A stretch of DNA of 64,000 bases, taken from assembly GCA_963718615.1 (NCBI GenBank), contig OY970368.1:5024001-5088000 (forward strand), read 5' to 3'. The translations under genes were made by a program, and so were the position numbers. Position 1 is the first letter of the stretch, and each line of letters starts with the position of its first letter. The notes under the pieces are model-generated. The model had not been told where the DNA came from. It searched no databases and saw only the letters and a program-made list of their open reading frames with translations. Source of the stretch: an uncultured cyanobacterium. Its GTDB lineage: Bacteria > Cyanobacteriota > Cyanobacteriia > PCC-9006 > JAAUQQ01. This document shows positions 831 through 24,589 of the stretch, piece by piece.

Positions 831-870
831 GTATAACAATCTGATTAGACTGAATGACCTCCACCTAATC
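831..870 (-). mobile_element. Integron attI-like recombination site (left)
   Basis: Minus strand GATTAGGTGGA-ggtc-ATTCAGTCTAAT-cagatt-GTTATAC: L box, 6-nt spacer and GTT R box. Aligns with the site at 20918-20957. Confidence 0.65.
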
Positions 871-891
871 CCCAGACTACAGGGTCTTATA

Positions 892-2721
892 CCCGGATTT
901 CTCACCAGGGCGGATAGAGAGTATCAGGCTTGCCCGAAATGAGATGAGCAGTCTGTTGACTCGAGCAATAGAGGATGCCTGAGGCATCTTTCAGGCTGTC
1001 TATGCTGTAAAGGTAGTCATTGTGCTCTAGATATGGGGCTTCAGGCAGATTTTGAGCAGGTCAAAGCAAGGGTGTGTAATCTCACCCTTGGAGAGTCGTT
1101 GAATTAAAGTCGGAGCGAAAGGCTAGAGTTCTACTCATCGGTCTATCCTGGCCTAGGGAGTCGTCTGCGCAACTGTTGTGCTGCCGCTTCAAAGAGGGTT
1201 TGTATGGGCGAAGCGAAAGTGAATGCGACGAGAATGCGCCTGACAGAGATGCGAACCTGTGCGCCAAGCTTGAGCAGCTTGCGTCGAATGGTGCCCAGAG
1301 TCGCATCAGCGAGTTCAGTTTTGGCGAGTGCCTTGAGGCGCAGGGCCTGCATCAAGACATAGGCGAAGGATGAAAACCAGAGTCTGAGCTGATTGCTTTC
1401 AAAGTCATGGGTGGAGGTGCGGTCGCTGAAGAGGTCAAGCTGATGCTCCTTGATGCGATTTTCCATCTCTCCTCGCGGACAGTAATAATCGCGGTGAAGG
1501 TGAGCGGGATGGGCCTGCTGTGCTGTCAAAGAGGTGACAACGAAATGGCGACGTGGGCCATTGCCATCGTAGGTGAGCTTGCAAATGACGCGACGCTCAC
1601 AGCTCCAGGATTTAAGCGTGGCATAGCTCAAGGACTGATGCCAAACCTGGGGCGGAACCAAGCGGTTGAGTTCAGCCTCTAGTTCACTTGCACTCTGCTC
1701 TAACAGAGGTTCTAAGGTGGCAGCAACCGTTTGGCGCTGGGCCTCATAAACGGCTTTGGCTCGCTGTTCTAACCCCCAAGTCAATTGGCGCAAGCGCTCA
1801 TTGCTGCTGTGGGCAAAAACAAAGTCCACCTGGGCTTCACCTTCACACCACAGCATGATGTCATCTCGGCTGTAAGCACTATCGCCGCGCACCAGAATCT
1901 TCACCTTCGGCCAATGACCTCGAATCTGAGCCACGATGCGTTGGAGTTCTTCTAACGCTCCCGCTGCGGGGTCCACATTGGCCGGTCGCAGTTTTGCACT
2001 CAACAAATGGCGACCACTGAAGATGAGCAACGGGGTGTAGCAGTCATGGCGGTAATACCCATTGAACGCTGAACCTTCCTGGGTGCCATGGGTGGGGTCA
2101 TCGGTGACATCCATGTCCAGGATGATTTGTTTCGGTTCACCTTCGAGTTGTTCGATGAATAGCTCCACCAAGAGCGCCTCGATGGCAGCCGGGTCCAGGC
2201 TCAGTTTCACGTAGCGCGAATCTGACAAGTCGCGGGGGACATGCATCGCTTGCTCCAATCGGTTGAGGGTGCTCTTGCCCGCTAACGGTGCACAGCGCGG
2301 ATGCTGGCTTTCTAACTGACCCAGAACTACCCCAAATAATCGCTCATGCCGAAGGTCGTCATGGTCATTCACGTCCTCGTAGCCTTGCACCAATCCATAA
2401 AGCCGTTGCCCGAGCAGCGTTTTCAATTCATGTTGCACCCGGCTGCCATCGCGGTGATCCGTAAAGCACTCGGACAGCCGCTCACTGATTCGATATAGCT
2501 GGTCGATTTCTCGAATTAGCAGCAGCCCTCCATCACTGCTGAGCTCACCACCGCTAAAGTTCGCTACTATCTTGCGTTGATTCAGGCGTCCAAACTCGTA
2601 GCTTGGCAAGTTACACTCTGTTTGGGTCGGGGCCATCTTTGCAAACCGCTGAATGTCTTGTGGTTATTACATTCTCGCTGGTTGGTGACCCCGATCCCTC
2701 GGCACTGGTGAGATATCCGGG
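892..2721 (-). mobile_element. IS1380-family insertion sequence, complete (1830 bp)
   Basis: Terminal IRs CCCGGATTTCTCACCAG (892-908) and CTGGTGAGATATCCGGG (2705-2721), one mismatch. 5-bp target duplication TTATA at 887-891 and 2722-2726. Confidence 0.93.
1143..2636 (-). CDS. IS1380-family DDE transposase
   Basis: Motifs FSGGELSSDGG, GYEDVNDHDDLR, LDMDVTDDPTHG, RGDSAY, RGEMENRIKE typical of IS1380 transposases. Confidence 0.95.
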   Translation of the reverse strand: MAPTQTECNLPSYEFGRLNQRKIVANFSGGELSSDGGLLLIREIDQLYRISERLSECFTDHRDGSRVQHELKTLLGQRLYGLVQGYEDVNDHDDLRHERLFGVVLGQLESQHPRCAPLAGKSTLNRLEQAMHVPRDLSDSRYVKLSLDPAAIEALLVELFIEQLEGEPKQIILDMDVTDDPTHGTQEGSAFNGYYRHDCYTPLLIFSGRHLLSAKLRPANVDPAAGALEELQRIVAQIRGHWPKVKILVRGDSAYSRDDIMLWCEGEAQVDFVFAHSSNERLRQLTWGLEQRAKAVYEAQRQTVAATLEPLLEQSASELEAELNRLVPPQVWHQSLSYATLKSWSCERRVICKLTYDGNGPRRHFVVTSLTAQQAHPAHLHRDYYCPRGEMENRIKEHQLDLFSDRTSTHDFESNQLRLWFSSFAYVLMQALRLKALAKTELADATLGTIRRKLLKLGAQVRISVRRILVAFTFASPIQTLFEAAAQQLRRRLPRPG

Positions 2722-2803
2722 TTATACAGAGCTGCTTCAGTCTATTCCCCAAATTAGGAATATTAGACCGAACCAGAGTCGGTATAATCCCCAAAAACGA
2801 ACA

Positions 2804-2830
2804 ATTAGGCGGAATGTCATTCCGCCTAAT
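2804..2830. promoter_or_regulatory. Perfect 13-bp inverted repeat within an array of ATTAGRC-like boxes
   Basis: ATTAGGCGGAATG-T-CATTCCGCCTAAT, with related boxes at about 2762, 2937 and 2960. Confidence 0.55.
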
Positions 2831-3190
2831 CCCGGATTTAGCGTCTTAGCCCGAATCTCATTCCTCATAATATCCACAATCCCCCGGATAAGACGATCAC
2901 CAGGCTTTTCCTGTCAAAAATCTTTGCATAGCATTTCGCCTAATCCCCCAAATCCCGCCTTAGACCGAAGCACCGAACATCCGCCCCCTTCAACAACACC
3001 TCCAGTTCAACCATGAAACCGACCAATTAGAGGCATGCAGTTCGGGGTCTGGGCGTTTGGCAAAGAAACAATCAGAGAACCGAAGCAGCCTGATTGCCCT
3101 GGTACCCAGCAGCAGCGATCGCAACCTTCCCACCTTCCCTGGGAAAACTAGAATCATCCGCTCAGGCTCATCCCGGTACCTGCTAGTCCC

Positions 3191-4372
3191 ATGCCTACCG
3201 CCGCATCTGCTCTCAAAAAAGGAATTCGTGCCATCCAAGCCGGTCGCTACACCGACGCGATCGCCCTCCTCCAATCCTGGTGCGACCAAGCCGGTCCCGA
3301 GGCCGAAGCCTATCCCGAAGCGGTGAAAGTCCTCGTGCGGGCCTATCGGGAAGCCGAACGCTGGGAAGATGCGATCGCCCTCTGCGAAGACCTAGCCGAA
3401 CACAGCGACCCCGCCCTCAAACATTGGGCTTGGCAAATGCTGCCAGTCCTGAGCAAAGCGCAGCCCGTCGATGGTCCCACCACGGAATTTGTCACCCTAC
3501 CCCACGCAGAAGCCGACCACACCGCCTTACAGATCGCCAAAAAATCAGTTCCCCTCGGAGATACCGCCGAACAACGTCAACTGCTCGCCGGGGCCAGGGA
3601 AGCCCTGGAAGCGCAACGCTATGGCACAGCCGTAGAACAGTTTGAAGCCTATCTGCGCCAAAAAAAGCAATTCGACCCGGCCAAGGCCCAAACCCACATT
3701 GCCCTAGCCCGCGCCTATCAAGGCAATCAACAGCGCCAGGAAGCCATTAACCTCTGCCAGCATTTGCTCAAAATTGGCGATCAGGGCACCAAACGCTGGG
3801 CACACCAATTTCTAGAAGCCATCAAACGCTATCCCAAAGCCCGCGATCCCTTGGCAGAACAACGCCAAGCCCGCAAACCCCCCACCCATTTGCAGTGGGA
3901 CATTTCGGAATCGGCCTTGGTGATTGCGATCCATACTTCGGTTTATGCCGGATTAGTCCTCTCTCCCCTGGTACCGGGAACCTTGTGGCGCGATTTGGGC
4001 TTAGCGCTGATTCAAGCAGGCACGATTACGCCGGAGTTGATCTTGCCCTTGGCGATCGCCCTGCTCCCCCTCAGCTTTCCCGCCGCATTACTCTACAGCT
4101 CCAAGGAACAAGCGATTCGGGGCCATGCTCGGGAAGTGGTGAACTATTGGATTACCTTGTTTGCGATCGCCCTCGCCGTCAGTCTCCTCGGCCCCTTGTG
4201 GACCATGCTGATGGAATGGGTTGCCAAGCTACCGCTGTTGTTTAATCTCACCAAACTTGTCCTTTCTCTGGCCGGATTCGGCTATGGTGCCGCTCCGCTC
4301 TTGGCGATTTTATGGCACTTTAAGAAACCCGAGCGCCGCTTCCGCTATCCTTTTATCCTACGCTTCATTTAA
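3191..4372 (+). CDS. TPR-repeat protein with C-terminal DUF4870-like membrane domain
   Basis: Two TPR-like modules, then hydrophobic helices ending in FRYPFILRFI. Confidence 0.75.
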   Translation: MPTAASALKKGIRAIQAGRYTDAIALLQSWCDQAGPEAEAYPEAVKVLVRAYREAERWEDAIALCEDLAEHSDPALKHWAWQMLPVLSKAQPVDGPTTEFVTLPHAEADHTALQIAKKSVPLGDTAEQRQLLAGAREALEAQRYGTAVEQFEAYLRQKKQFDPAKAQTHIALARAYQGNQQRQEAINLCQHLLKIGDQGTKRWAHQFLEAIKRYPKARDPLAEQRQARKPPTHLQWDISESALVIAIHTSVYAGLVLSPLVPGTLWRDLGLALIQAGTITPELILPLAIALLPLSFPAALLYSSKEQAIRGHAREVVNYWITLFAIALAVSLLGPLWTMLMEWVAKLPLLFNLTKLVLSLAGFGYGAAPLLAILWHFKKPERRFRYPFILRFI

Positions 4373-4433
4373 GCGGATTCGCTGCAAGCGTTGCATCCGG
4401 TCAAAACTCAGGTCAAACTCAGGTCAAATCAGG

Positions 4434-4742
4434 GTGAAAAGCTGGTTTCTTTATCTCATTCGGTGTCGTGATCATTCGCTCTATGTTGGTATCACAACCG
4501 ATATTAAGCGACGGTTTGCAGAACATTCGGCCCAAGGCCCCCGCTGTGCCAAGTATTTGCGAGGCCGCGCACCGCTCACGCTGGTGTACCAAACAGAAGT
4601 CGGCACAAAATCAGCAGCCTCTCGCCTAGAACTGCGACTGAAGCGCTGGCCCAAGGCCAAGAAAGAAGCGCTGGTGCTCGGACAAATCCCCTTAGACCCT
4701 AGTTTGCCTTCGACCGCAACGTCCCCGACCGCCGAGGCTTGA
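4434..4742 (+). CDS. GIY-YIG nuclease family protein (YhbQ/UPF0213-like)
   Basis: WFLYLIRC-x4-LYVGITTDIKRRFAEH...AKYLRGR...E-x3-K pattern. GTG start at 4434 inferred. Confidence 0.88.
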   Translation: MKSWFLYLIRCRDHSLYVGITTDIKRRFAEHSAQGPRCAKYLRGRAPLTLVYQTEVGTKSAASRLELRLKRWPKAKKEALVLGQIPLDPSLPSTATSPTAEA

Positions 4743-5565
4743 GATTCAACGGAATGAGGCGGGGTTGTAGACTATGCAACAAAGCTTCTCGAACGGCGGG
4801 TTCCGTTTCCTGATGCAGCAAGAGCTGAAAGGCTTGCTCCGCCAACCGCTGCTGATCCGATTCCAGCAGATGCTGATCGATCAAACGCTGGAGCTGACGG
4901 ACAGCCAATAAACGCTTGAGGGGTTCTGGATGGGCCAGTTTATCCAGGACCTGTTCAAAATCGACCTCGAAGCGATCGCCCTCGCGCCCCATCACCAGCG
5001 TCGTCAACACCAACAGCAGCGCCAGCATCCCGCCGCCCAGCAAAATCAAACTCGACGCCAACCAAAGGCTATGGGCATCTTCCCAAATGCTCACGGTCAT
5101 GTAGGTGCCGAGCATCGCCAACCCCCCACTGGCCACCGACAACAACAGCAACCGCTGGGGTCCCGCGCACCAGCGTCGCAGGTGATCGATCCAAGCTTGC
5201 CAATTTTGTTTTTGGAGGAGATAAACCAACCCCATCACCCCAGTTCCGACTCCGAGGGCCAGCATTAACTTACAATTCCAGGCCACAAGACCGCCCAAGG
5301 CCACAACGGCAAAGAGCTTGGTTGCCCAGCCGCGATGTTTGTACAGAAAACGCTGGAGCGATCGCGCCTGCTGTCGATTCGTTCGCGGTCGGGTCCCCCC
5401 AGCGGCTTGGCGGGAGAACTGGCCCAGGGCGCGGCAGACATCCTGGAAGGCAACAAGGAGAGTACGGCGGGGGGCAGGGTGAACCACGGTATTTTCTAGG
5501 AACTTCCTGGGCAAAGAAAAAGCAGGGAACAGGACTAGGAGCAATGTTTCCAAGCCCGCCCCCAT
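4699..5565 (-). CDS. Cyanobacterial membrane protein with C-terminal HEAT/ARM-like helices (start uncertain)
   Basis: About 4 TM segments followed by LAHPEPLKRLLAVRQL...ETEPAVREALL. Confidence 0.7.
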   Translation of the reverse strand: MGAGLETLLLVLFPAFSLPRKFLENTVVHPAPRRTLLVAFQDVCRALGQFSRQAAGGTRPRTNRQQARSLQRFLYKHRGWATKLFAVVALGGLVAWNCKLMLALGVGTGVMGLVYLLQKQNWQAWIDHLRRWCAGPQRLLLLSVASGGLAMLGTYMTVSIWEDAHSLWLASSLILLGGGMLALLLVLTTLVMGREGDRFEVDFEQVLDKLAHPEPLKRLLAVRQLQRLIDQHLLESDQQRLAEQAFQLLLHQETEPAVREALLHSLQPRLIPLNLKPRRSGTLRSKAN

Positions 5566-5610
5566 TCTATACCGAGCGGTCTTGAATGGCCCGTCTTTTT
5601 GAACTGACCT

Positions 5611-8600
5611 CTAGGGATCACCCTGGAGGGGAAGCCGGGGACAATCGGCAGCGCTGAGCTGGAGATAATCCAGACATTCCTGCGGGGTGAGCTGACGGAA
5701 GCTGCGATCGCGCGCCAGTTTGCGCAAACTCTTGGCCGTCGCGGCCCAAAAGGCAACGGTGCCCTCGGTATTCACCGCTGCGATAAATTGCCCATCGGGG
5801 CTATAGGTCACCTGGACAATGCCTTCCGTTACGTCCTGGGGGGTCTCTAGCGGGGTCTCTAGCAAGGTAATCTGACCCGTTTTGATCGACCAAAGGCGCA
5901 CAGTGCCATCGCGGTGGCCCGTGGCAAGCTGCTGCCCCTCGGGGGAAAATGCCAGGTCGCGGATGGGGCTCATTTTTGCTCCCGGTTCTGGCCCCTGCCC
6001 CAGGGATTGGGTTTGGCCCGTTTTCAGGTCGATCAGGGTGAGCGCACCGTCGGAGAACGTGGCTGCCAGGGTTTTGCCACTGGGATCGAGATGGGCGATC
6101 GCGATCCCCGGTAATTCAAACCGATGCAATTGTTTGCCGGTTTTGACGGCCCAGAGAGTGACAGTACCCGTCGGACTCACGGTTAAGAGGCGTCTGCCAT
6201 CGTGGCTAAACTGGGCGCTGGCGATCGCCCCCAAGGCTTGGGGCCAGAGGGCCTGTTGCCCACTATCTGTATCCCAAAGATGCAGCTGCTGGTGACGATC
6301 GATGGCCAAAAGGCTGCGACCTTCAGGGCTGAGCTCAAGGGTTTGCAGCGCCGGGGAGGACGGCGCGGAGTCGGTAGTCCCTTGGGATTCCAGATCCGGG
6401 TCTAGATTCGGGTTCACAGTGGCGTCTAGCGGATCCAGATCCGTCACTAAAATCTCGGCCCGGCGCAGATCCCAAACCTGAATATCCCCATTGGCATGGG
6501 CCGTGGCAACGGTCTGAAAATCGCCAGTCCAGTCGGCTAACTGAATCGGGGAGTGGGGCTCAATGTCGAGGACAGCGGTTTCCTGCTGAAAGCCTTGGGG
6601 AATGTTCCAGCGGTTGAGCTGACCGGCTGAGTCCAAGAGCAAAAACTCCAGGCCCGTGGGTCGGGTCGATCGCACCTGGAAGGGTTGGCGCGGTTGCAGT
6701 CCTAGCCAGCGCAGCGGGGCCAGGAGGCGATCGGGCACGGGCGCAGGTTGAGCCTCGGATTGAGAACTGGCAGCAGCCATCGGCTCCAGGATCGGCTCTA
6801 CCGATGCCCTAGGGAAGACTTGCGCAAAGCCCTGACGAATTCCCTCGGTGTGCAGGGGCGGCAGCTCATACCCTGGCTGGGCATCCCAAAATTGCAGATG
6901 GCGCGCATTGACGGTCACAAGGGTGTTGCCATCGGGGCTAAAGCGAGCATCCAGCAGGTCGGAAGCCTCGTCGGCCTCGCGCAGCACCGCCTGTCTGTGG
7001 CCCGTTTTGAGGTCCCAAAGCTGGGCAGCGTGGGGCTGAATTGCCAGGAGTTGGGTGCGATCGCCCTTCAACCGCACCAGGGGCACATCCGCGCCCTCGG
7101 TCAATTGCAACAGATTTTGTAGTTCTCCCGTTGCGGCATCCCACAACCAGGCCCGATTGCCCTGCACCGAGATCACTTGCGATCCGTCCGTCGAAAAGTC
7201 AAGCTGCTGGGGCTGCCCGGTTTGGATTTGCAACGACGCGGTGACCCGCAGTTGGTGACGCAATTCACCAGTGGCACGATCCCAGAGGTAGAGCGTACCG
7301 TTATGGCCGACAGCGGCGATCGCCCCCGTCTGCGGACCCAATTTTGGACTCAGACGAATCTGGGTAATGGGCGTGGAGGCACTCAGTTCTAGCTCCTGAA
7401 TGCCGGTTTCCAGATCCCAGAGACGCAAACGGCGATCGCCCCCGCTGGTCAAGAGATAGCGACCATCCTCACTAAACTGCATCTGTTCCACTGGGGTGTC
7501 ATGGTCGAGGGTTCCGAGGAATCGCGGCTTGGTGCCTTCGGTATCCCACAGGTAAACCAAACGACCGGCGATCGCCGCCAACCGGGGCTGGGTCGGACTA
7601 TATAAAATCTGCTCCGGCGGTATCGGCAAGTCTGTGAGCACCTGCTTCACCTGGCCCGAAGGCAAGGACCAAATGGCAATTTCTGGGCGATCGGGGGTCA
7701 TGGCCGCCAGTTGATCGCCCGTGGGACTGAGACTCAGCCCCGTAATCCGCACCTCAGCCACCGGACGGGAAGAGGTATCCACAAACGCGAAGCGCTGGAG
7801 GTCAGGCCCAACTCCGACATTGCGGGTGGTCTGGAGCGAACCAGCGCTCGCCATCGCCGGTTGAGCCAACAACGACTGCATCAGCCGAGAGGCGCGAGTG
7901 GCAGCGGGTTCCTGGGGCCAGACTAATTTTTGCTGAATGCGGGCGGATTGTTGCTGATCTAAGATAGGACCCACTTTCCAAAAATAGGCTTGTCCCATAG
8001 GGTCAATTCCGGCAATCAGAGGCTGTTGGCTAGACCACTGGAGCGATCGCGGTGCCGTCCGGGTTTTGTACTCTGCCCGCAGCTGCATACTGCGCAGCGC
8101 CTCTCGCAGAAGCTGATCCGAAGCGGGATCAAGGACTTGTTCCGGCGACGGAGGCATGGTCCAGCGGCTGAGCAGCAGCGCTGGGGTCGGGTCGGCCTCG
8201 TCATTGGCCAAAATCTTTTGGGCCGCTTGGCGACTGGGCAAGGTTTGAGCAGCGGGGGGATGAGACCCGGACCAATATTGATGCACCACGGCAAAGAGCG
8301 TTGCCGTCAGTGCCGAGGGCAGTCCGACCTGCAACAATCGTGAACTGTGTCGCAGCTTCTGGTTTTCCTTTTGACTCAAGTGGATGTAGTGCTGCGCAAT
8401 CGACGACAAATCCTCAGGATGATTGCGCAAATAGGCTTCTGCTGCCCGGAGCTTGGTTCCCTGGAGCCAGCCTTCACCACTGAACAACTCGTTGCGATCG
8501 CACCATTCCTTTGCCGCTGCTTCAATCCAGCGCTGTTGGGTGAGGCGATCGCGATCGGTTTTAAGCCACTGTCGCAGATCGGGCCAGTCCCGGATCAGGG

Positions 8601-10635: not shown

Positions 10636-11027
10636 AGCACAATGCTTGAATGAATTGGACTGAATCCGGTCGCCTGGGGTATTGGGACAAAAGGGGATGG
10701 ACAAGTTGCCCATCCCACTTGATCAACACCTCGACGATGCACCCTAAGCTGGCCCCAAAACTGGAGCCTGCACCCTGAATTGGCGATGCAACCTTGGACG
10801 AAGAAAGCTGGCTAGGAATTATGCATCGCCGGAATCGCCCTCTAGAGACGCTTCTCTTGCTTTCTTCGCTGGCCGCAGATGCGTTTTCTTGCAGCCTTGT
10901 GGTTGTTAAAGTAACCAAGGAAAGGGGGAGTGTAAAAAGGGTGTCGCTCCTCGCGTAAGGCCACGGAAGCCCCATCCTCTCTTGCTTTTCAGCCCTCAAA
11001 ACTTCCGTGGATTCACCCTCGTCGACG

Positions 11028-12614
11028 TTATTTCTGTAGGGGGATTTGGGATGCGATCACCCGCTGCTGCCTCCACGCCCCAATCCACCGCCGCCAGCCC
11101 CAGCCAAGGCACCAACCCAAGCCCACCACCCCCAGGGAAAAGAGCCAAATCCTCAAACGAAAGCCTTGACCGAATTGCATGATGGCTTCGAGCAGCAGGG
11201 TGGGCACGATCGCCCCCAACAGCCCCAGGGCGATCGCCCAGGACGTGGAAATGTTGCGGTTCAAATCGCGGTTTTGCGATCCATAGCCCTGGATTAATTG
11301 TAGCCAGTAATTCAAACCCCAGCCCCAGGGAATGAGCCAGATGAAGTAATACATCCCTCGCAAGCCCAAGCCTCCAGGGGTCACGCGCAGGCGGCTGAGG
11401 CGATGGGGTAAAACATATTCAAACAGGGTTAGATCTGGAGTTAAGCGGAGGCTTCGAGACAGTTTTTGGCCATCACAAAAGATATCGAGGACATGGCCTT
11501 GATAGCGAATCACAAGATGATGAAAAGCCAAATCTTGGAAAACATTGGGAACTCGCAGCACCGGCCATAAATCTCCCTGTTGTCGGGTCACAGGCGTGCG
11601 CAATCGCAGGATCAAATCTCGATTCAATTGGCCCACCCAGAAATTAGAATTCCAGGCATTCTCGGCCATAGAAAAAATCACCGCAGGACCCTCTTGCTCT
11701 AGGGATTGAGTGGCGATGACCGCACTCCAGGTAAATTCTGAATGGGTTCGGAGCGATCGCACAATCCGTCGTGATTCCCCTAAGGTCGTCAACGGCGGCA
11801 GATCCTGCCCCCCTTGGAGCGGCACAGGGGGCTGGAGTTGCAGAAGCACCTCGGGCAGATGGGATTGTATCTGGTCTAACTGGGTGGGATTGGGATCGGT
11901 TAAATGTTTTAGCTGGGCATCAGAGAGGGCGCGATCGCTCCAGACAAGCGCTGCCACTTCCCCCGCCCAAGGGCGATCGCCCCGACCCGCATGGCCCACC
12001 TGGACCGGAAAATCTTCGTTCCAATTAATCAAGCGAGCCAGACGATGGAGCTTGGCCGTCGTGCCCAAACAGAGCAACAGCCAAATGCACAGAACGATGG
12101 CCCATACCCGAGGGGTTTGGAGCCGCTGCTGCAACCGCCAGAGCCAGCGGGGGCGGGTCTCTCGACTCAAGGCATTCCAGAGGAATCCTCCCAGTAAGCC
12201 TCCGAAGCCATTGAATCTCACATCGCTAAAACTGCTGGTTCGGCTGGGCATCAAGGCTTGAAGCCCCTCGACCCCCAACGACAACAACACACTCAACCCC
12301 AGACTGAGTCCCAGGCGTTGCAGGCGATCGCGGCGGGAGGCGACCACAGTGCGGGAACGATCGCGCCCTCCCAATCCAGCCAAGGCCCAACCCCAGGGGA
12401 TAAACAGCAAGATATTGCTAATGCGATCGCCCGTATAGCTGGCGGAGGTGAAGAATTCCTGTAAGGCCAAGGGCAACGGCTTGAGGGCAGCCCCCTGAAA
12501 ATTAAAGGGATAGAGGGTTGCCACCCCAATCACGACCAAACTCACCCCTAAACAAATCCGAGCGGCTCGGTGGGCCAGCGAGCGATGGAATCGCGATTGA
12601 TTGAAGGGCGACAT
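11028..12614 (-). CDS. VanZ-family membrane protein with LamG/ConA-like domain
   Basis: ATLYPFNF, NILLFIPWG, VEGLQ-x4-RTSSFSD VanZ motifs, then a LamG-like beta domain. Confidence 0.8.
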   Translation of the reverse strand: MSPFNQSRFHRSLAHRAARICLGVSLVVIGVATLYPFNFQGAALKPLPLALQEFFTSASYTGDRISNILLFIPWGWALAGLGGRDRSRTVVASRRDRLQRLGLSLGLSVLLSLGVEGLQALMPSRTSSFSDVRFNGFGGLLGGFLWNALSRETRPRWLWRLQQRLQTPRVWAIVLCIWLLLCLGTTAKLHRLARLINWNEDFPVQVGHAGRGDRPWAGEVAALVWSDRALSDAQLKHLTDPNPTQLDQIQSHLPEVLLQLQPPVPLQGGQDLPPLTTLGESRRIVRSLRTHSEFTWSAVIATQSLEQEGPAVIFSMAENAWNSNFWVGQLNRDLILRLRTPVTRQQGDLWPVLRVPNVFQDLAFHHLVIRYQGHVLDIFCDGQKLSRSLRLTPDLTLFEYVLPHRLSRLRVTPGGLGLRGMYYFIWLIPWGWGLNYWLQLIQGYGSQNRDLNRNISTSWAIALGLLGAIVPTLLLEAIMQFGQGFRLRIWLFSLGVVGLGWCLGWGWRRWIGAWRQQRVIASQIPLQK

Positions 12615-12829
12615 GGGTGTGTCTTGATAATCCCAAGGAAAGTGATAATCCCAAGGAAGGTGATGAAGGAATAGTGATTAAAGTAACATCTTCCTCGGCA
12701 AAACTATAGGTCGCCCGCGTGCCCGCCCGATCCCCTGCCGGATCCTTCATTCGAATCCCTCCCCCCAAAAGAACGACCCAGGCCCTAACCACCCATAATG
12801 GAAAGGGTGTTATTTGACCTCCTGCTTTC

Positions 12830-13585
12830 ATGTTTGGTTCGATGCTTGATTTGATATTTGGCTCGATGGATGTCCAGCGTTTTGTCCAGCGTTTTGTAAG
12901 GCATTTTGCACGGTATTTAGTACGGTATTGGGTGAAGCCGGTTGTGGCGATCGCCCTCTGTGGGGCGATCGCGTCCTGCAGCAACTCCGGACCCGCCCTA
13001 GGGGAGCCGACTCAATCCCCTCCTCAAATCCGCACTCAATCTTCCGCCCCAGGATCTGCCAAGGCCACCTTTGCCGGGGGCTGTTTCTGGTGCATGGAGC
13101 AACCGTTTGATCAGTTACCGGGGGTAATCTCCACCACCTCGGGCTACACGGGGGGAACACAGCCCAATCCGACGTACAAACAAGTGTCCTCCGGCACCAC
13201 CGGCCATACGGAATCGGTCCGGGTGGAGTACAACCCGGCTCAAGTCAGTTATGAGACCCTGCTCCAGACCTATTGGCACAATATCGATCCGCTGGATGCC
13301 AAGGGACAGTTCTGCGACAAGGGCAATCAGTATCGATCGGCGATTTTCTACGAAACCCCTAAGCAAAAAAAGTTAGCGCAAACCTCCAAACAAGCCCTGG
13401 AAAAATCCGGTCAATTCCAGCAACCCATTGCCACAGAAATTGTCGCGGCCAGCACATTTTATCCAGCGGAGGATTACCACCAGAATTTCTATCAAACCCA
13501 TACGGCTAAATATAAGTTCTATCGGTTGGGTTGCGGTCGCGATCGCCGTCTTCAGCAGGTTTGGGGAGACGCTGCGGGTCACTAA
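12830..13585 (+). CDS. msrA: Peptide-methionine (S)-S-oxide reductase, probable lipoprotein (true start likely GTG at 12931)
   Basis: FAGGCFWC, GYTGG, GNQYRSAIF, AEDYHQ motifs. Lipobox-like IASC. Confidence 0.95.
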   Translation: MFGSMLDLIFGSMDVQRFVQRFVRHFARYLVRYWVKPVVAIALCGAIASCSNSGPALGEPTQSPPQIRTQSSAPGSAKATFAGGCFWCMEQPFDQLPGVISTTSGYTGGTQPNPTYKQVSSGTTGHTESVRVEYNPAQVSYETLLQTYWHNIDPLDAKGQFCDKGNQYRSAIFYETPKQKKLAQTSKQALEKSGQFQQPIATEIVAASTFYPAEDYHQNFYQTHTAKYKFYRLGCGRDRRLQQVWGDAAGH

Positions 13586-13599
13586 GACCGTCAATTTCT

Positions 13600-14067
13600 A
13601 TGAAGAAACAGGACTCTTCCCTGCCCTTGATTGGCTGGCGTGAATGGGTGGCACTGCCGCAGTTGGGCATCTCCCGTATCAAAGTCAAAGTGGACACAGG
13701 GGCTCGATCTTCGGCGCTCCATGCCTATGAGATTAAAAGCTTTAAGCGCAGCGGCAAAGCGATGGTTCGATTTAAGGTCCATCCGCTGCAAAACAACAGT
13801 AGTAAACTCGTTACCGTCGAAGCTGAGCTGATTGACGAGCGTTCCGTGCGCAGTTCCATTGGCAAAGCCCAACTCCGTCCGGTCATCCGCACACCGATTA
13901 TTTTGGCGGGCAAGCTTTGGCCGATTGAACTCACCCTCACCAACCGCGATGCCATGGGGTTTCGGATGCTCCTAGGCCGTCAAGCGGTCCGCAAACGGTT
14001 TCTGATTGATCCCGGTCATTCCTTCGTCCAAGGCACCAAGCCGATCGCGCCCTGCGCCGAATCCTAG
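13600..14067 (+). CDS. RimK-associated putative aspartyl/'ATP-dependent zinc' protease
   Basis: IGWREW, KVDTGARSSALH, MGFRMLLGR. Directly upstream of rimK. Confidence 0.9.
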   Translation: MKKQDSSLPLIGWREWVALPQLGISRIKVKVDTGARSSALHAYEIKSFKRSGKAMVRFKVHPLQNNSSKLVTVEAELIDERSVRSSIGKAQLRPVIRTPIILAGKLWPIELTLTNRDAMGFRMLLGRQAVRKRFLIDPGHSFVQGTKPIAPCAES

Positions 14068-14088
14068 CCCCCTCCGCTTGACCTCGCC

Positions 14089-14991
14089 ATGAAAATTGCC
14101 ATTCTCTCCCGCGATGCTACGCTCTACTCCACCCTGCGCCTCAAGGAAGCCGGGGAACAACGGGGCCATGAAGTCCGCATCATCGACCACATGCGCTGCT
14201 ACATGGACATCACCTCCCAATCGCCCAAACTGCTGTATCAAGGCAAACCACTCGATCAAATTGAGGCAGTGATCCCTCGGATTGGGGCATCGAAGACCTT
14301 TTACGGCACGGCGGTGGTGCGACAGTTTGAGGTGATGGGGGTGTTTGTGGCCAATGACTCCCAGGCGATCGCCCGCTCCCGCGACAAACTGCGCTGTCTA
14401 CAGATTCTCTCGAAGCAGGGTCTAGGGCTACCGGTGACGGGATTTGCCCACTCCACCAAGGATATTGACGGTTTGATTGACCTGGTGGGCGGAGCACCGC
14501 TGGTGATTAAGCTCCTAGAGGGCACCCAGGGGATCGGCGTAGTCCTGGCAGAAACGCGCCAGGCGGCCAAGTCTGTGATCGAAGCCTTTCGGGGATTGGA
14601 TGCCAATATTTTGGTGCAAGAATTTATTAAGGAAGCGGGGGGGGCCGATATTCGCTGTCTGGTGATTGGGGACAAAGTGGTCACCGCCATGCAGCGCCAG
14701 GGGGCACCGGGAGAATTTCGCTCCAATGTCCATCGGGGGGGATCCACCAGCCAGGTGCGGCTGTCCCCGGAGGAACGCAGCACAGCGATTCAGGCCGCCA
14801 AGGCCATGGGGCTGAAGGTAGCCGGGGTGGATATTCTGCGCTCCCATCGCGGCCCTTTGATTATGGAGGTCAACTCCTCACCAGGACTAGAAGGCATCGA
14901 GAAGGCCACGGGCGTTGATGTGGCGGGCCGAATTATTGAGTTTGTCGAGCGGAACACAGGCCGTCGAAAGCGCAGCCTGTCGAAGCATTAG
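14089..14991 (+). CDS. rimK: 30S ribosomal protein S6--L-glutamate ligase
   Basis: ATP-grasp motifs [34 protein letters not shown]. Confidence 0.95.
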
Positions 14992-14999
14992 GAAGCATT

Positions 15000-15266
15000 T
15001 CAAGGGGCAGCCCGCCGTTTGGTCACCGTTTCAAAAAAGATTTTGCGGGCCGGTGCCATCATCTCATCGGGCATTGCTTCTAGAAAGCCTTTGATGGCTT
15101 CCGGATCCCGCAGATCGACCTCGGCGGAGGCCGTCAGCAAAAACAGCCAGATAATATGCCGTCCCCAGAGGTCTTCGATCGGATCCTGCAAAAACTGCTC
15201 ATCCAATTCTTCGGCGTACTTGGCCGCAACCCAAGCCAACAGCGGAGCTAATTGTTGCTGATTCAA
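15000..15266 (-). CDS. Hypothetical protein (TTG start inferred)
   Basis: AGGAG 7 nt before an in-frame TTG at 15266. This start avoids overlap with the rhomboid gene. Confidence 0.5.
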   Translation of the reverse strand: MNQQQLAPLLAWVAAKYAEELDEQFLQDPIEDLWGRHIIWLFLLTASAEVDLRDPEAIKGFLEAMPDEMMAPARKIFFETVTKRRAAP

Positions 15267-15319
15267 ACTGATTCTCCTAAGGGTGTTCTCTAAAATTATA
15301 TTTTCTAGGTTCAACACCC

Positions 15320-16912
15320 ATGAGCTTTGAAGGCCTGCTGGTTCAAATTGTCCTCTTTTCCTGTTTGGCGATGCTGATTCAGGCTCGGCAGATTGCACGG
15401 GGGTATGGGATCGCGGCGGTGTTCAATCTAGCCCTACTCCTAGCCCTACTTTGGCAGTTTCCCCACTGGGCCGGTTGGTTGAGTGGCACGGTGTGGGCTA
15501 TGACGTTTTTGTTGCCGCTGCTGGTCTCGGCTCGACTGCGGTTCTTGATGCTGCGAGAAGAGTATCAAGGGGCGGCTCGGCTGGTGCGCCGTTGGCCTTG
15601 GCTGGGGCCGTGGGGCGGGTATTTTGCTCAACCGGCGCTGGTGGAGGGATTGGCCATTGCCCAAGCCGGTGATCTCGAAACTGCATTGCAACACTTAGGG
15701 CGCGATCGCAATCAACCCGGATCCCCAGGCCAGATCGCCAACACGATTTTCTATCAGCTCTCGGCCCAGTGGCCAGAATTGCTGGCTTGGATGCAGATTA
15801 ACTTTACGGAATCTCAGTGGACACAGGTGCCTATCCTCGTAGCGATCGCCCATGTCCGTGCCCTAGGAGAAACCCACCACCGGGAAGCCATGGTCCGGGC
15901 CTTTGCCAAGCTCAATCAAACGGAGGCGTTCCAGCGCGATCGCGATTCCCTCAACCATCTGCGGATGATCGTTGCCGCGTTCTGTGGCAAAACAATTTTG
16001 GTTCAGCAACTGCTCTCGACGACCCTGAAACTTTCGGAACCCTCACAGCAGTTTTGGCGGGCAACGGCGTTGCTGGCCCAGAAGCATCAGGCGGAGAGAA
16101 GACAGGGGAGCCAGCAGTTGGAGACGCTACAACAATCCGGGAGCGGGATTTGGCAGGGGGCGATCGCCTACCGACTCCAGCATCCTCCTCCGGCCACCAC
16201 CGCGTCCCTCTCCCCCTCAGCTGCTCAAATCCTGCAACAGCTTGAAACTGAGGTCCAAAACGACCTCAAGGCCGGTCCTCTGCCCTTTGCTCGGCAACAG
16301 CAGCGAGCTTGGCTGACCTATGGGCTGATCGGTTTGAATTGCGCTGTTTTTCTCGCTGAAATTGGGGCCGAAATTGGGGCCAAAATTGGGGCCGAATGGG
16401 TCAGTCCATTCCTAGGCTCCTCCTACACCACAACATTGTTTTTATCGGGTGCATTGGTCCCGAGTCGAGTCCTGGCGGGGGAGTGGTGGCGGCTGGGCAG
16501 CGCTATCTTTTTACATGCCAACTTTGTGCATTTATTTTCTAATATGCTAGGGCTGTTTTTCTATGGTTCTTTTGTAGAGTCGCGATTGGGGGGGCTAAAA
16601 CTGGGGTTCGTTTATGGGATCGCAGGCATCGGCTCCATGGTCGGCATGATGGCAGTCGCGCTCATCCAGGGGGAACCGGAGTTGTATGGCATCGGAGCGT
16701 CGGGAGCGGTGATGGGCTTGTTAGGGGTGATGGTGGCGATCGGTCTCAAGGGATGGCAAGCCTCGAAGTCGGTGTTGGCGGGGCGAAATTTGCGATTACT
16801 GGTAATTTTGATTGTGCTACAAACCCTGTCAGATTTCGCAATTCCCCAGGTCAGCGCGTCGGCGCATTTATCGGGGTTGGCGATCGGTTTTTTACTGGGA
16901 TTGAGTTTGTAG
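15320..16912 (+). CDS. Rhomboid-family intramembrane serine protease with N-terminal extension
   Basis: GEWWRL, FLHANFVHLFSN, GASG, SAHLSG. Confidence 0.92.
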   Translation: MSFEGLLVQIVLFSCLAMLIQARQIARGYGIAAVFNLALLLALLWQFPHWAGWLSGTVWAMTFLLPLLVSARLRFLMLREEYQGAARLVRRWPWLGPWGGYFAQPALVEGLAIAQAGDLETALQHLGRDRNQPGSPGQIANTIFYQLSAQWPELLAWMQINFTESQWTQVPILVAIAHVRALGETHHREAMVRAFAKLNQTEAFQRDRDSLNHLRMIVAAFCGKTILVQQLLSTTLKLSEPSQQFWRATALLAQKHQAERRQGSQQLETLQQSGSGIWQGAIAYRLQHPPPATTASLSPSAAQILQQLETEVQNDLKAGPLPFARQQQRAWLTYGLIGLNCAVFLAEIGAEIGAKIGAEWVSPFLGSSYTTTLFLSGALVPSRVLAGEWWRLGSAIFLHANFVHLFSNMLGLFFYGSFVESRLGGLKLGFVYGIAGIGSMVGMMAVALIQGEPELYGIGASGAVMGLLGVMVAIGLKGWQASKSVLAGRNLRLLVILIVLQTLSDFAIPQVSASAHLSGLAIGFLLGLSL

Positions 16913-16936
16913 GGACGAACCGCAATTCGTCCCTAC
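16909..16936. repeat. GTAG-type REP-like palindrome / bidirectional terminator
   Basis: GTAGGGACGAA-ccgcaa-TTCGTCCCTAC between convergent genes. Confidence 0.65.
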
Positions 16937-16957
16937 AGCGCGATGGCCCATCGCAAC

Positions 16958-17422
16958 TTAACCGAGGGCTTGTTCGATGGTGGCGTTTAGATCCGCATCA
17001 TCGGGTGTAGTTTGGGGCTCAAAGCGAGCGACAACCTGGCCATCACGTCCCACAACAAATTTGCCAAAGTTCCAAGCAATATCGGGACCCTCACCCACCA
17101 AAAACTGATACAGCGGGCTGCGATCGGGGCCGTTAACATCCTGCTTTTCGAGCAGCGTGAACTCGACATCGTACTTGGTTTTGGTGAAGTCTTTGATCTC
17201 TTCTGGGGTACCGGGTTCCTGTCCCCCAAACTGGTTGCAGGGGACGCCAACGATGACGAGACCGCGATCGCTATATTTCTGGTCTAGCTCCACGAGGCCA
17301 TCGTATTGCTTGGTGAGACCGCACTTACTCGCAACGTTGACAAAGAGAACAACTTTATTTTCCAGGGTTTCGGGAGACAGCGGTGCACCGTCGAGGGTTG
17401 AGAGGTTAGTGGGTAGGGACAT
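16958..17422 (-). CDS. gpx: Glutathione peroxidase (Cys type)
   Basis: VNVASKCG, PCNQFGGQEPG, WNFGKF. Confidence 0.95.
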   Translation of the reverse strand: MSLPTNLSTLDGAPLSPETLENKVVLFVNVASKCGLTKQYDGLVELDQKYSDRGLVIVGVPCNQFGGQEPGTPEEIKDFTKTKYDVEFTLLEKQDVNGPDRSPLYQFLVGEGPDIAWNFGKFVVGRDGQVVARFEPQTTPDDADLNATIEQALG

Positions 17423-17607
17423 GGTGATCTATGTTCAGTCTTTACAACGACTCCATTATCAGTCATTCATCCAAGTGTTTCAAACCCATTAAAAACAATC
17501 CTTAAAAACAATCCTACAGATAGAAGCGAATCCCTCGGCTCTTTCTATAGGCTGAATTGGAAAACTGTGGCGACAAAGCGAAAGCGCAAGATTAGCCATC
17601 AGAATTA

Positions 17608-18126
17608 ATGAGGACAATAGAAATGTTTAATGGTTGGTCTTCTCTCGCCCATACCGTCTGGGTTGGTAGTCTGGCATATGTCATTATCATCTTCTTATTG
17701 CGAATCTCCGGGAAACGAACGCTCTCAAAGTGGAACTCGTTTGATTTCGTGGTTACGATCGCCTTTGGGTCAATTCTAGCTTCGTTGTTATTATCAAAAG
17801 AAACCTCCTTATTTCAAGGAGTCTTGGGATTTGGCCTGCTGATTCTCTACCAGTTTGTGTTGACTTGGAGTGCCGCGCGATCGCCATGGATCCAGAACCT
17901 CATCAAAGCAAAGCCAACGCTACTTTTATACAAGGGACAGTTTTGCCAAAAGGCGCTAAAGAATCAACGGGTGACTGAGGGAGAAGTTCTAGCGGCCATT
18001 CGTGGACAAGGCGTTGATGATGAGCATCAGATTGGAGCTGTGGTTTTAGAAACGGATGGCAGTTTCAGCATCATCAAAACGCTTACCCCTACTTCTTCTG
18101 CGCTGAGAGATGTAGAGGGATTTTGA
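17608..18126 (+). CDS. DUF421/YetF family membrane protein
   Basis: LRISGKRTLSK-x-NSFDFVVTIAFGS, VVLETDGSFS. Confidence 0.88.
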   Translation: MRTIEMFNGWSSLAHTVWVGSLAYVIIIFLLRISGKRTLSKWNSFDFVVTIAFGSILASLLLSKETSLFQGVLGFGLLILYQFVLTWSAARSPWIQNLIKAKPTLLLYKGQFCQKALKNQRVTEGEVLAAIRGQGVDDEHQIGAVVLETDGSFSIIKTLTPTSSALRDVEGF

Positions 18127-18225
18127 GAACTGTATCTAAACCTGTATCTAAACACTGTATCTCAATTGCATTTAGACAGCGTCTATAAGACCAATCAATG
18201 TGAATCTCTTTCTCAGGATTCTAGG

Positions 18226-20157
18226 CTATACAGTCGCCGCCTCGCGTTTTTTTGCAGACTGTACTTCGAGATAAATCAACAGGGCATTCACATCCGCCGG
18301 ATTAACCCCCCCAATGCGCGAGGCTTGGCCAATGGTTAGCGGACGGACTTGGGTGAGCTTTTCGCGAGCTTCCATGGAGAGGGTTTCGATCGCCATATAG
18401 TCCAAATTATCGGCTAACTTACGGTGTTCTTGACGGGCGATCGCATCAATTTGCTTCTGTTGCCGCTGCAAATACCCTGAATATTTAATCTCAATCTCCG
18501 CTCCTTCCTTTTCTTCCCGAGCCAGCGACGCCGTACCGAGGCCATAATGGTCCAAATCGCCATAGTGAAATCCAGGCCGACGCAGCAGATCTGCCAAGGT
18601 AATGGCATCTTTAATTTTTTGCTCGGTGTCTGCCATGATCTGCTGACCAACGGCTTCGTGGGCTTTGATGCGGGTGCTGTGGAGGCGTGCTTTTTCGGCG
18701 GTGATCTGGGCTTGCTTTTGCTGGAACAACTGCCAACGGCGATCGTCAATCAGGCCAATTTCTCGACCCACAGGCGTCAAGCGCTGATCGGCATTATCCG
18801 ATCGCAACAGCAACCGATATTCCGACCGACTGGTCAGCATCCGATAGGGCTCACGCAACTCTTTCGTACACAAATCATCTAGTAGCGTTCCCAAATAGCT
18901 CTGTTCCCGAGGGAAGATTACCGGGTCTTGGCCGCGCACCAACCGCACGGCATTAATCCCGGCCACGATGCCCTGGGCAGCGGCTTCTTCATAACCCGTG
19001 GTGCCATTGATTTGCCCTGCACAAAATAGCCCTTCGACGCGTTTGGTCATCATCGAGGGAAAGCATTGGGTCGCAGGCAAATAGTCATATTCGACGGCGT
19101 AGGCCGGTCGCAGCATGGTACAGTTTTCGAGGCCCGGTAGCGTACGCAACAGTACCAGTTGCAAATTCTCAGGCAGTCCAGTAGAAAATCCTTGAATATA
19201 CAACTCCGGGATGTCGCGCCCCTCCGGTTCAATAAAAATTTGGTGCGAGTCCTTATCGGCAAACCGCACGATCTTATCTTCGATGCTGGGGCAATAGCGC
19301 GGGCCTTTGGCATCGACGTAGCCGCCATAAATCGGCGTTAAGTGCAGGTTCTCCCGAATCATTTGGTGGGTGGCGGCGGTGGTGCGGGTGAGGTAGCAGG
19401 GCATTTGCTCTCGCTCCACCCAGGCGTCCGGGTCAAAGCTAAACCAACGCACATCTTCGTCGCCCGGTTGGGGTTCGAGAACACTGTAATTGACTGAGCG
19501 TTTATCAACGCGGGCGGGGGTGCCGGTTTTGAGGCGATCGGTTTCAAATCCCAAGCGGTTCAGGGTTTCCGTTAGCCCAACCGCCGCAAATTCCCCGGCC
19601 CGACCCGCTGGCATGGATTTGTTGCCCACCCAAATCTTGCCCCCCAGGAACGTACCGGTTGTTAAAACAACTGCTTTTGCCTTAAATGCTGCACCAAAGT
19701 AGGTCTCAACGCCCTGGACTTCTTCGTTTGGCCCCAGGATCAGATCGGTGACCATGCCCTCGCGCACCAGCAAATTTTCCTGGTTATCGACGATCTGTTT
19801 CATGATCGCGGCATATTCCCGCTTATCGGTTTGCGCTCGTAGCGCCCAGACGGCGGGGCCTCGGGAGGCGTTGAGAATGCGTTTTTGCAAGTAGGTGCGA
19901 TCGGCCAGTTTGCCAATTTCACCGCCCAGGGCATCGACTTCGTGGGTGAGCTGGGATTTGGCAGGGCCACCGACGGCGGGGTTGCAGGGTTGCCAGGCGA
20001 TGCGATCGAGATTCAGCGTTAGCAGCATGGTTTTGCAGCCCAACCGTGCCGCCGCCAGGGCTGCTTCACACCCGGCATGACCGGCCCCGACGACGATGAC
20101 GTCGAATTCGTCTTGGAAGTCGCGTGGGAAATTATGGGTAGCGATCGCAGTGGGCAT
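18226..20157 (-). CDS. mnmG: tRNA uridine-5-carboxymethylaminomethyl(34) synthesis enzyme
   Basis: [50 protein letters not shown] at 20157 inferred. Confidence 0.97.
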
Positions 20158-20356
20158 GAGAACAGGTATGGCTCTGTCAGGGACTAGAGCCTTTATTTTA
20201 TCGGATTCTACGAATTCCCTGTTAGCTGGCTCCGTATACAGATCTTGCACTTATCCTTTGCGGCAATCGATCATTCTGAATTCCTCAGCAAAGATCGTCT
20301 GTGGCCAGGGTTGATAGATAATTGATTGGCAGGAATCAAATGCTCCACAGTCAATT

Positions 20357-20473
20357 ATGAAGTTGCTGACTCGCGACGCTACTGACTATATCAATGACCA
20401 TCTAGACCAGGGGTTGAGTTTAGACAAATTAGCGACGATCGCCCACCTCAGCCCTTATCACTATGCATATTAG
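20357..20473 (+). pseudogene. AraC-family HTH fragment
   Basis: DYINDHLDQGLSLDKLATIAHLSPYHYA, then breaks at the IR starting at 20462. Confidence 0.7.
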
Positions 20474-20760
20474 GGTTTCTAGGGATTTCGATTGCAAGCC
20501 ATATCCCGAAAGGGCTTCGGGAAATTTTAGTGCTTAATATCGCAAGTTTTGTCCTGTACAGAGCGAAATAGTAGGTCCTCTGGGCCATCTCATCAACAGA
20601 TACTTACCCTTTTCCACAGGGTAGAAATCGATAAAATCGTTGCTGATACAGAGTTTCAGCTATCCTTACCTTTAGAGTACTACCCCTGGTCAAGCAATTT
20701 TTTGGGTCTGGGTTCCATGGCGGTTTCATAGAGAAAAGTTACGAAACCCTAACTTGCATA
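20462..20760. mobile_element. 299-bp segment bounded by inverted repeats (MITE/IS-remnant-like)
   Basis: TATGCATATTAGGGTTTC (20462-20479) vs GAAACCCTAACTTGCATA (20743-20760), 16/18 complementary. Confidence 0.5.
20680..20718 (-). pseudogene. intI: Integron integrase N-terminal relic
   Basis: MEPRPKKLLDQ then G*. Matches the usual start of integron integrases (..PKKLLDQVR..) and is divergent from the attI/attC array. Confidence 0.65.
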
Positions 20761-20917
20761 ATATTTTATAAAGGACGCCGTGCTATCTGGCAGGGTAGCT
20801 ATACTGAAATGAGTCCACCTAATCTACTAATGAAGGTGTTATGCAGACATATGGCTACCTAATCTCCTTTAGGGAATTGTTAGATGGACAGATTTCCATC
20901 TAACGCGTCCAAAGCGT

Positions 20918-20957
20918 GACTAGATGGACTAGATTCAGTCCAATAATATTGTTAAAT
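20918..20957 (+). mobile_element. Integron attI-like recombination site (right)
   Basis: GACTAGATGGA-ctag-ATTCAGTCCAAT-aatatt-GTTAAAT, lying between the intI relic and the first attC. Confidence 0.7.
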
Positions 20958-21041
20958 CGCAGCGGCAATATGAATCACTGAGGAGGCTTGCCTATAGATT
21001 TAATGTTAGCGCTTGGGAACACTACAAACAACTCCGCTACG

Positions 21042-21157
21042 AATTAACATATCGCTGCAACCGACGCAACAAAAAAAGGATTGATGAGCCAGCCGCGCTA
21101 TCAACATGCGTTGATAATAGCTAGATTTCTTGGCGTGGCTGAGCTAAATCGTTAGAC
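21042..21157 (+). mobile_element. attC site 1
   Basis: R'' AATTAAC, 5-nt spacer, L'' GCT(G)CAAC ... L' GCTGAGC, 6-nt spacer, R' GTTAGAC. Extrahelical-base pattern present. Confidence 0.85.
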
Positions 21158-21199
21158 AGAAAACCTATAATTTATAAATATGATTCATAGACTAACTTT

Positions 21200-24588: not shown

Positions 24589-24589
24589 T

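Follow-up and report, generated by a model that had tools for sequence, protein, structure and literature searches.

In the attI1 site of class 1 integrons, an L box and an R box (G|TTRRRY) are separated by a 6-nt spacer, the crossover falls between G and TT, and two accessory repeats, DR1 and DR2, are also present. Two attI-like sites of a cyanobacterial chromosome are compared here with such described systems. Both lie in a stretch of 64,000 nt (referred to here as the window; positions 5024001-5088000 of contig OY970368.1) within the 6.1 Mb, single-contig genome of an uncultured cyanobacterium. For most chromosomal integrons the attI site has gone unrecognised, and arrays of attC sites without a nearby integrase are filed as attC-site clusters that lack an integron integrase (CALINs), the origin and competence of which are described as unclear in sections of PMC4889954. 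The same sections foresee integrase loss by some out of several integrons as an origin of CALINs, and link integrase-less arrays functionally to an IntI encoded elsewhere. In clinical integrons, attI-type sites located inside arrays are used by IntI1 supplied in trans from a plasmid, as reported in parts of PMC12901181.

The two window sites are very probably attI sites of integrons that have lost their integrase gene (intI). The first-pass annotation of this stretch had pointed to two homologous, outward-facing 40-mers at 870-831 (minus strand) and 20918-20957 (plus strand); these were confirmed letter by letter, and a recount returned the same 28 identical positions of 37 through GTTA (29 of 40 overall). 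Their shared core, ATTCAGTCYAAT-N6-GTT, is found as an exact match at 835-855 (minus) and 20933-20953 (plus). When up to two mismatches were allowed, three matches were obtained in the window, compared with a mean of 0.15 in 100 shuffles, none of which contained three; the third match (23277, two mismatches) is located inside a Uma2-type gene and was taken as a chance occurrence. Read from the sequence alone, the simple site consists of GTCTAAT-CAGATT-GTTATAC on the left and of GTCCAAT-AATATT-GTTAAAT on the right (L box, 6-nt spacer and R box, respectively), with the L box inverted relative to the R box across the short spacer in both cases. The R box corresponds to G|TTRRRY, its right half being supplied by the docked cassette.

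Upstream of each simple site, 12-nt boxes of the GATTAGGCNGAAT type are repeated over 200-300 bp, mostly as inverted pairs. The right attI, a sub-type of what is designated here as type B, spans 20719-20951 (plus) and displays the boxes CCACCTAATC, CTACCTAATC, GTTAGATGGA / TCCATCTAAC and GACTAGATGGA, followed by ATTCAGTCCAAT and a spacer of 6 nt, after which position 20951 is the G of G|TT; it is homologous to 785222-785417 of the genome. The left attI (type B main) is divided into two parts by an insertion sequence (IS). Its proximal part (837-891, minus) runs from the G of G|TT at 837 through the 6-nt spacer, the L box within ATTCAGTCTAAT and a partner box, GATTAGGTGGA, up to the IS target TTATA, while its distal part (2727-3012, minus) contains further ATTAGGCGGAA-type boxes and is homologous to the other type B copies (nhmmer match 5026947-5026719, equivalent to window 2947-2719). 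With the IS removed, the left site aligns over ~330 bp with the repeat family, so the earlier suggestion that the upstream boxes recur at both sites holds.

The IS itself (892-2721, minus) encodes a DDE_Tnp_1_4 transposase at 1143-2636 (minus), ends in CCCGG...CCGGG and is positioned ~50 bp from the crossover of the left attI. It is flanked by a 5-bp target duplication (TTATA at 887-891 and 2722-2726), indicative of a simple insertion, and seven further copies, 99.8-100% identical, are present in the genome. The insertion would have occurred later than the docking of the cassette, cutting off the distal boxes and sparing the simple site and one box.

Integrase genes are directly seen to have been lost at both sites, in agreement with the claim that neither carries an intact one. 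On the left, five codons remain at 3013-3030 (plus), i.e. a start codon and four more codons followed by a stop, and these align with the intI start of a copy in a related cyanobacterium (G003:C83). On the right, the remnant at 20680-20718 (minus) encodes 11 codons, MEPRPKKLLDQG, and a stop; nine of the 11 residues are as in the N-terminus of the intact IntI described below (tblastn E 0.036, in a tiny database). The right site had been placed between an intI relic and attC sites, and this position is borne out, with the relic consisting merely of MEPRPKKLLDQG and a stop, and with an attC at 22651-22739.

A repeat of ~122 bp (20564-20686), which resembles a miniature inverted-repeat transposable element (MITE), is located where the right intI was truncated, abutting or overlapping the end of the remnant; it occurs in at least nine places in the related genome G001 with 79-85% identity. 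Between mnmG and this repeat, a short frame at 20358-20472 resembles by eye the N-terminal part of an AraC-type regulator (...LSLDKLATIAHLSPYHY) and is ended by a stop.

The expectation that an intact intI would be encoded elsewhere proved correct: a single such gene is present at 948656-949594 (TIGR02249, 443.8 bits; cut-off 265). As the sole match above the cut-off, it is located ~4 Mb away, so that no integrase adjoins either window array as it would in a complete integron. The encoded protein can be aligned over its full length with VchIntIA (2a3v); the alignment takes in LYGSGLR, HTFRHSFA and IYTH, stretches which we take to carry the catalytic residues. It belongs to another attI family, type A, and its identity to the integrase relics of types B and C is only 64-66%. 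The 3' end of the type A gene (949481-949584) was observed to share 93-95% DNA identity with the 3' ends of two type C relics (3860288-3860392 and 4712675-4712757), the 5' parts of which are only ~79-82% alike, hinting at recombination between integrase genes.

Modules of attI were sought across the genome by nhmmer with one single-sequence attI query per family (A, B and C), which replaced an earlier, insensitive regex clustering of boxes. Approximately 23 modules in three sequence families were identified, associated with short arrays and with the single intact integrase of the chromosome, and the proposal that dispersed, integrase-less attI platforms exist in this chromosome is thereby upheld. 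Type A or A-like modules are located at 948, 1907, 1477, 3238 and 4518 kb, the last three with intI start remnants (recognised by eye); the type A site upstream of the intact intI displays the boxes GATATACAGAAA-A-TTTCTGCCTAT and the end TAAGAG|TT. Type B modules are found at 785, 2250, 3132, 3538, 4665 and 4667 kb and at the left and right window sites, with a partial copy at 6017 kb. Type C modules occupy ten loci, contain GTTATCAGGCA-type boxes, end in AAGTTG|TT and lie beside relics at 3859666, 4646402 and 4713822. All three families follow a common plan, in which an inverted box pair is followed by 5-6 nt and G|TT. Further copies of the ATTCAGTCYAAT-N6-GTT core were located at 2250415 (minus) and at 4665769 and 4667319 (plus); ~280-430 bp of upstream sequence is common to these three and to the left site without its IS. 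A copy shorter by one base is present at 785389.

An attC search by regex and folding (RYYYAAC...GTTRRRY, with strict R-box pairing) returned two true sites and several false palindromes, and was replaced by an nhmmer profile built from three seeds, which detected 23 sites at E <= 4e-8 and one doubtful site at E 0.03. For all 23, an attI module reading in the same direction lies no more than 16 kb upstream; random placement (2000 trials) gave 0.66 such sites on average and 4 at most. At least one such attC was found behind 16 of the 23 modules, and the arrays hold between zero and four detected attC sites. Modules facing in the same direction were also observed in tandem, 1.5-10 kb apart (4665787 and 4667337; 427904 and 417512; G001:C322:11027 and 14182), so that some attI sites do not head a cassette array but lie within one.

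Comparison of the paralogous copies directly establishes the crossover point. Among the type B copies of this genome (2250417, 4665787, 4667337, window left, window right and 785422), homology stops at G|TT. For these copies together with nine main-type copies from three genera, identity amounts to 68-95% over the 276 nt up to G|TT and falls to 18-62% in the next 40 nt, the residual identity being attributable to a short motif common to many cassette starts. The 785 kb copy and the right window site, for example, are ~93% identical over ~190 bp and diverge right after GTTA. The variation in content that had been anticipated at the crossover points is therefore observed among paralogous copies. 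The crossover falls at the G|TT of a GTTRRRY core with cassettes beginning from TT, and cassettes ending in attC hairpins are present behind both window sites.

A cassette of ~200 bp is particularly informative, as it follows G|TT at three kinds of attI, with 94-97% identity: at the type A site next to the intact intI, at 4665787 (type B main) and at window right, which represents the type B sub-type. At each of these sites a different cassette comes next. At 1907 kb, a type A copy has the junction TAAGAG|TTATGCTGC without the cassette, and a target duplication is thereby ruled out. The presence of the same cassette at three kinds of attI, together with this empty junction, indicates that the ~200-bp unit was transferred as a cassette, through recombination at G|TT.

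Since the modules are multi-copy and rich in inverted repeats, and genomes of other cyanobacteria each contain several similar box palindromes, it was considered whether they might represent unusual attC sites of a plain CALIN, or a MITE-like or repetitive extragenic palindrome-like repeat unrelated to integrons that contains GTT by chance. This explanation is extremely unlikely: the attC profile matches no attI module, the modules were always found heading arrays and none at an array end, copies are arranged divergently beside intI starts in both the source genome and its relatives, and homology ends at G|TT rather than at the ends of inverted repeats, with no target duplications seen. A second explanation would be that a single attI and its array were duplicated and then separated by an inversion or an IS-mediated event, yielding two outward-facing sites. 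The sites are indeed inverted, lie 20 kb apart and carry an IS at one of them, and rearrangements and IS are proposed as sources of CALINs in sections of PMC4889954. We nevertheless regard such a split as very unlikely, because the sites are of two separate sub-lineages (68-71% identity to the main type for window left, a grouping with the 785 kb copy for window right), because each has its own inward-pointing intI start remnant, and because the clean 5-bp target duplication marks the IS as a simple insertion. Moreover, the 18 kb between the sites is of native composition (GC 0.558; 38 copies of the highly iterated palindrome HIP1) and contains ordinary genes, including those for MsrA, RimK, a rhomboid protein and MnmG.

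Under the preferred reading of decayed integrons, both window sites would represent attI of one lineage, type B, that is, double-stranded docking sites at which an integron integrase inserts circular gene cassettes. The intI genes would once have been arranged divergently beside them and would have been deleted down to five and 11 codons. Cassettes would have been inserted at G|TT, one on the left and two on the right, with each array ending in a canonical attC. The window pair would thus be leftovers among many integron copies, of which only one, type A, retains an intact integrase.

On the left, the single docked cassette occupies 1-836 of the window (minus), starts at TT (836-835), contains an open reading frame (ORF) of 552 aa from 683 and continues to an attC at genome positions 5023002-5022912 (minus), ~1 kb to the left of the window start. 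An attC is thus directly seen where the absence of one after the left gene would have spoken against an integron. The description of this gene as low in GC and free of HIP1 was likewise accurate (GC 0.425; zero HIP1 compared with 2.8 expected). No Pfam family was assigned to the 552-aa product, for which searches with Pfam and PADLOC returned a weak N-terminal, Avs1c-like match (E 6e-7, 68 residues). On the right, cassette 1 (20952-21151, plus) is the ~200-bp unit without an ORF; its identity is 97% to the cassette in first position at the intact intI (948 kb) and 94% to that at attI 4665787. Cassette 2 (21152-22733, plus) carries a 473-aa ORF (21200-22621, GC 0.36), to which neither a Pfam nor a PADLOC family corresponds, and ends in the canonical attC at 22651-22739. 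The latter displays R'' GTCTAAC, R' G|TTAGAT and an extrahelical G, and its bottom strand folds into a bulged hairpin (z -2.66). The cassettes have GC contents of 0.36-0.44 and contain no HIP1, and an Rfam search of window 20200-22800 gave no match up to E = 1.

Many cassettes were also observed to share a start motif after TT (TTAnnCnGCT...TCGGTGGGGAC-like) within their first ~30 nt, for example at window 836-808 (minus), from genome position 2250416 downwards and from 4667338 onwards; this exceeds the 6 nt explicable by the R' box of an attC.

By the definition of IntegronFinder, a minimum of two attC sites and no nearby intI make a CALIN. The left array has two profile attC sites, 8.7 kb apart, and the right array has one profile attC and one that is non-canonical, with no intI near. 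The segment between the two left-array sites (genome 5014239-5023002; L064:2239-11002) was found to encode a complete type I restriction-modification system, with HsdR, a YhcG/DUF1016 nuclease (PDC-S02), HsdS, an AAA_13 protein and HsdM. The segment would be a defence 'cassette' of very large size or, alternatively, host DNA that became enclosed by two arrays.

Homologous sites were then compared in related cyanobacteria, where the motif had been expected next to integrase genes, and it does adjoin intI relics or near-intact intI genes there. The nearer examples come from G003, a genome of another genus within the family. At G003:C83, an 89-codon intI relic with two TGA codons lies ~310 bp from a type B core. 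At G003:C431, a near-intact intI (353 bits, cut-off 265, one TGA) is preceded by an upstream region ending in ...GATTCAGTCTAATTAATAG|TT, and a more distant Chamaesiphon metagenome-assembled genome (L056) has intI in two frames together with ...TCAGTCTAATAAATAG|TT. At G322:C88, the alignment of an intI gene is unbroken over residues 3-320, and ATTAGGCTGAAT-type boxes lie ~150 bp upstream. The box palindrome is also present beside intI relics in four more genomes. A conserved stretch to the left of the type B boxes was considered as an intI N-terminus and rejected, as the intI start of G003:C83 is located ~40 bp further on. Since the copy at G003:C131 retains only ~5 intI codons, comparing the divergence of relic and attI with that of G003:C83 was uninformative. 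In G001, G003 and G004, mnmG is present without this attI behind it, the match ending at the gene. After the core of two type B-like attI sites (genome 3538718 onwards, and G003:C431, i.e. L061), a shared stretch, GCGCGA(T/C)TCGAAGTCGTTCGGGGGAG..., was observed; possibly a group II intron of the kind that targets integron sites has its 5' end here.

Several observations weigh against the interpretation of the window sites as attI of integrons that lost intI. No intact intI lies beside any of the nine type B main copies (three genera), and the sites neighbouring intact or near-intact intI genes belong to more distant attI sub-types (55-58% identity for G003:C431); at G322:C88, no clean G|TT was identifiable. 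The upstream boxes would be extra integrase-binding sites, as judged by their position and repetition, and the left attI, split by the IS, may be impaired in function. For the ~200-bp cassette, the attC profile returned no match, and its presumed attC, folded as a 146-nt part, scored no better than shuffles (z -0.54). The second attC of the left array lies at 5014331, 8.7 kb beyond the first, and the restriction-modification segment between them is of native composition (GC 0.55; seven HIP1) and may not be a cassette.

The first-pass annotation had further proposed a distributed integron, in which dispersed platforms could be loaded in trans by one IntI. As described above, the dispersed, integrase-less platforms are present; their loading in trans by the one intact IntI, which is that of type A, another attI family, appears rather improbable. 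In its strongest form, the proposal would be that selection maintains the platforms lacking an integrase and that the intact type A IntI (948 kb) currently loads and unloads them in trans, with ~23 modules and one integrase forming a single system. An integrase encoded at another locus may have brought some cassettes to the window platforms, and these may have remained usable, although a system operating today as a whole appears doubtful.

Several lines of evidence are consistent with such use in trans. The ~200-bp cassette stands first at one type A and two type B platforms, two of these without an integrase, and it was found in none of the four other genomes of the family (87-93% complete). 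Two pairs of integrase-less platforms are 91-95% alike, yet their first cassettes are unrelated: one pair is B_2250 and B_4667, with homology (91-94%) extending from -428 to +29 around G, and the other is the 785 kb copy and the right window site. Between genera, type B attI sites (74-85% identity) are conserved to the same degree as the mnmG coding sequence (79-82%), and the sequence beside mnmG is unalignable between these genera. The motif GAT..CAGAA is common to type A and type B boxes, and the L boxes are alike. In addition, CALINs are said to be mobilisable in trans in sections of PMC12444791.

On the other hand, attI is reportedly recognised only by its cognate integrase, according to parts of PMC2095811, and the surviving IntI diverges from the type B and type C relics as given above. 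Copies of the ~200-bp cassette differ by 3-6%, whereas IS copies in the genome are 99.8-100% identical, and this difference among the cassette copies indicates that the moves were not recent. The high identity of the platform pairs could be produced by gene conversion, and conservation between genera could date from the time of cognate integrases or reflect transfer.

Sequencing runs were also compared with the right array. A related organism in run X1 has the same dead-intI region (20319-20827, seven differences), and an X1 contig matches the far flank of the array from 22732 and is preceded by 278 unlike letters, the switch being located 1-2 nt from the attC crossover (22733|22734), a further point in favour of use in trans. 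However, the X1 contigs are short, and linkage among the X1 pieces is an assumption. X1 has no cover at 20828-20947 and 21216-22622, and metagenomes X2 and X3 yielded small, less similar pieces only; such gaps were not used as evidence.

Also speaking against present use in trans, the longer segments shared between arrays that were inspected, apart from the ~200-bp cassette, are IS-like, some segments lying outside this inspection. Candidates for recent cassette sharing were rejected in two cases, as an 859-bp segment (99-100%) is an IS1-like IS and a segment of ~450 bp to 1 kb (94-97%) looks like an IS end, and no shared segment, including a 2633-bp element, was counted as evidence of integrase activity. 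Three arrays, each with another attI type (genome 3238, 4667 and 3859 kb), contain the 2633-bp element with 99.96-100% identity. The 859-bp IS is 99.5-100% identical in three arrays, with fragments in a fourth (1477, 4518, 4713 and 1015 kb). Mobile elements thus seem to pile up in arrays.

Taken in this form, a networked integron in which ~23 integrase-less platforms are kept across genera by use and served in trans by a single, non-cognate integrase is conceivable but rather improbable. As part of the same tentative picture, new platforms would arise from the copying of attI modules, as the tandem attI sites in arrays and the platform pairs with the same truncated left end would suggest.

Elsewhere in the window, duplicated modules were noted at 24099-25522, ~760-1140 bp apart, with copies of 43-87 nt and 77-90% identity; one copy overlies the 5' end of a GDSL-lipase gene and the others are AT-rich and intergenic.

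In this genome, attI can be read directly by paralogue comparison, which yielded three natural multi-box attI families together with their crossover points, and every detected attC array begins with its own attI, with one integrase gene surviving. The genome therefore offers a concrete and cheap test of the insertion competence of integrase-less platforms and of their service by a non-cognate IntI. If the networked interpretation were true, many 'CALINs' elsewhere would be insertion-competent integrons with an overlooked attI, and if the platforms prove usable, both the interpretation of CALINs and the modelling of within-genome cassette traffic would change. If the sites are dead, they represent a well-resolved case of how cyanobacterial integrons proliferate and decay. 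In the literature searched, supplementary tables excepted, neither attI families of cyanobacteria nor a genome carrying dozens of attI-headed mini-arrays was found described.

With respect to known systems, the window sites resemble attI1 of class 1 integrons in their layout, having an L/R simple site, a G|TT crossover and extra integrase-type repeats upstream. This likeness is one of layout: approximately eight or more boxes are distributed here over 200-300 bp, mostly as inverted pairs, as opposed to two accessory repeats, and no integrase is adjacent.

The arrays share with CALINs and decayed chromosomal integrons, such as those of Xanthomonas with an inactivated intI, that attC arrays outlast a truncated or deleted intI, that an IntI is possibly present elsewhere and that IS are found nearby (as described in sections of PMC4889954 and PMC12444791). 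Unlike in CALINs, the attI of each array is recognisable here and present in many copies (~23, in three families), with every detected attC located behind one; unlike in Xanthomonas, where a single ancestral locus is concerned, dozens of loci are involved.

The tandem attI modules are comparable to the DeltaattI-type cassettes and the attI1-aadB-attI1 arrangement, in which attI-type sites occur inside arrays, as presented in parts of PMC12901181. Those are short, truncated attI1 or attI2 sites of clinical class 1 and 2 integrons, whereas the modules described here are full-length, multi-box chromosomal attI sites, with no resistance genes seen.

Finally, as in sedentary chromosomal integrons of the Vibrio type, the arrays are chromosomal, their attC sites are homogeneous enough for a profile and their cassettes are mostly of unknown function. 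In contrast to the Vibrio type, in which one long array lies behind one intI and attI, this cyanobacterial chromosome carries ~23 short arrays, each located behind an attI of its own.

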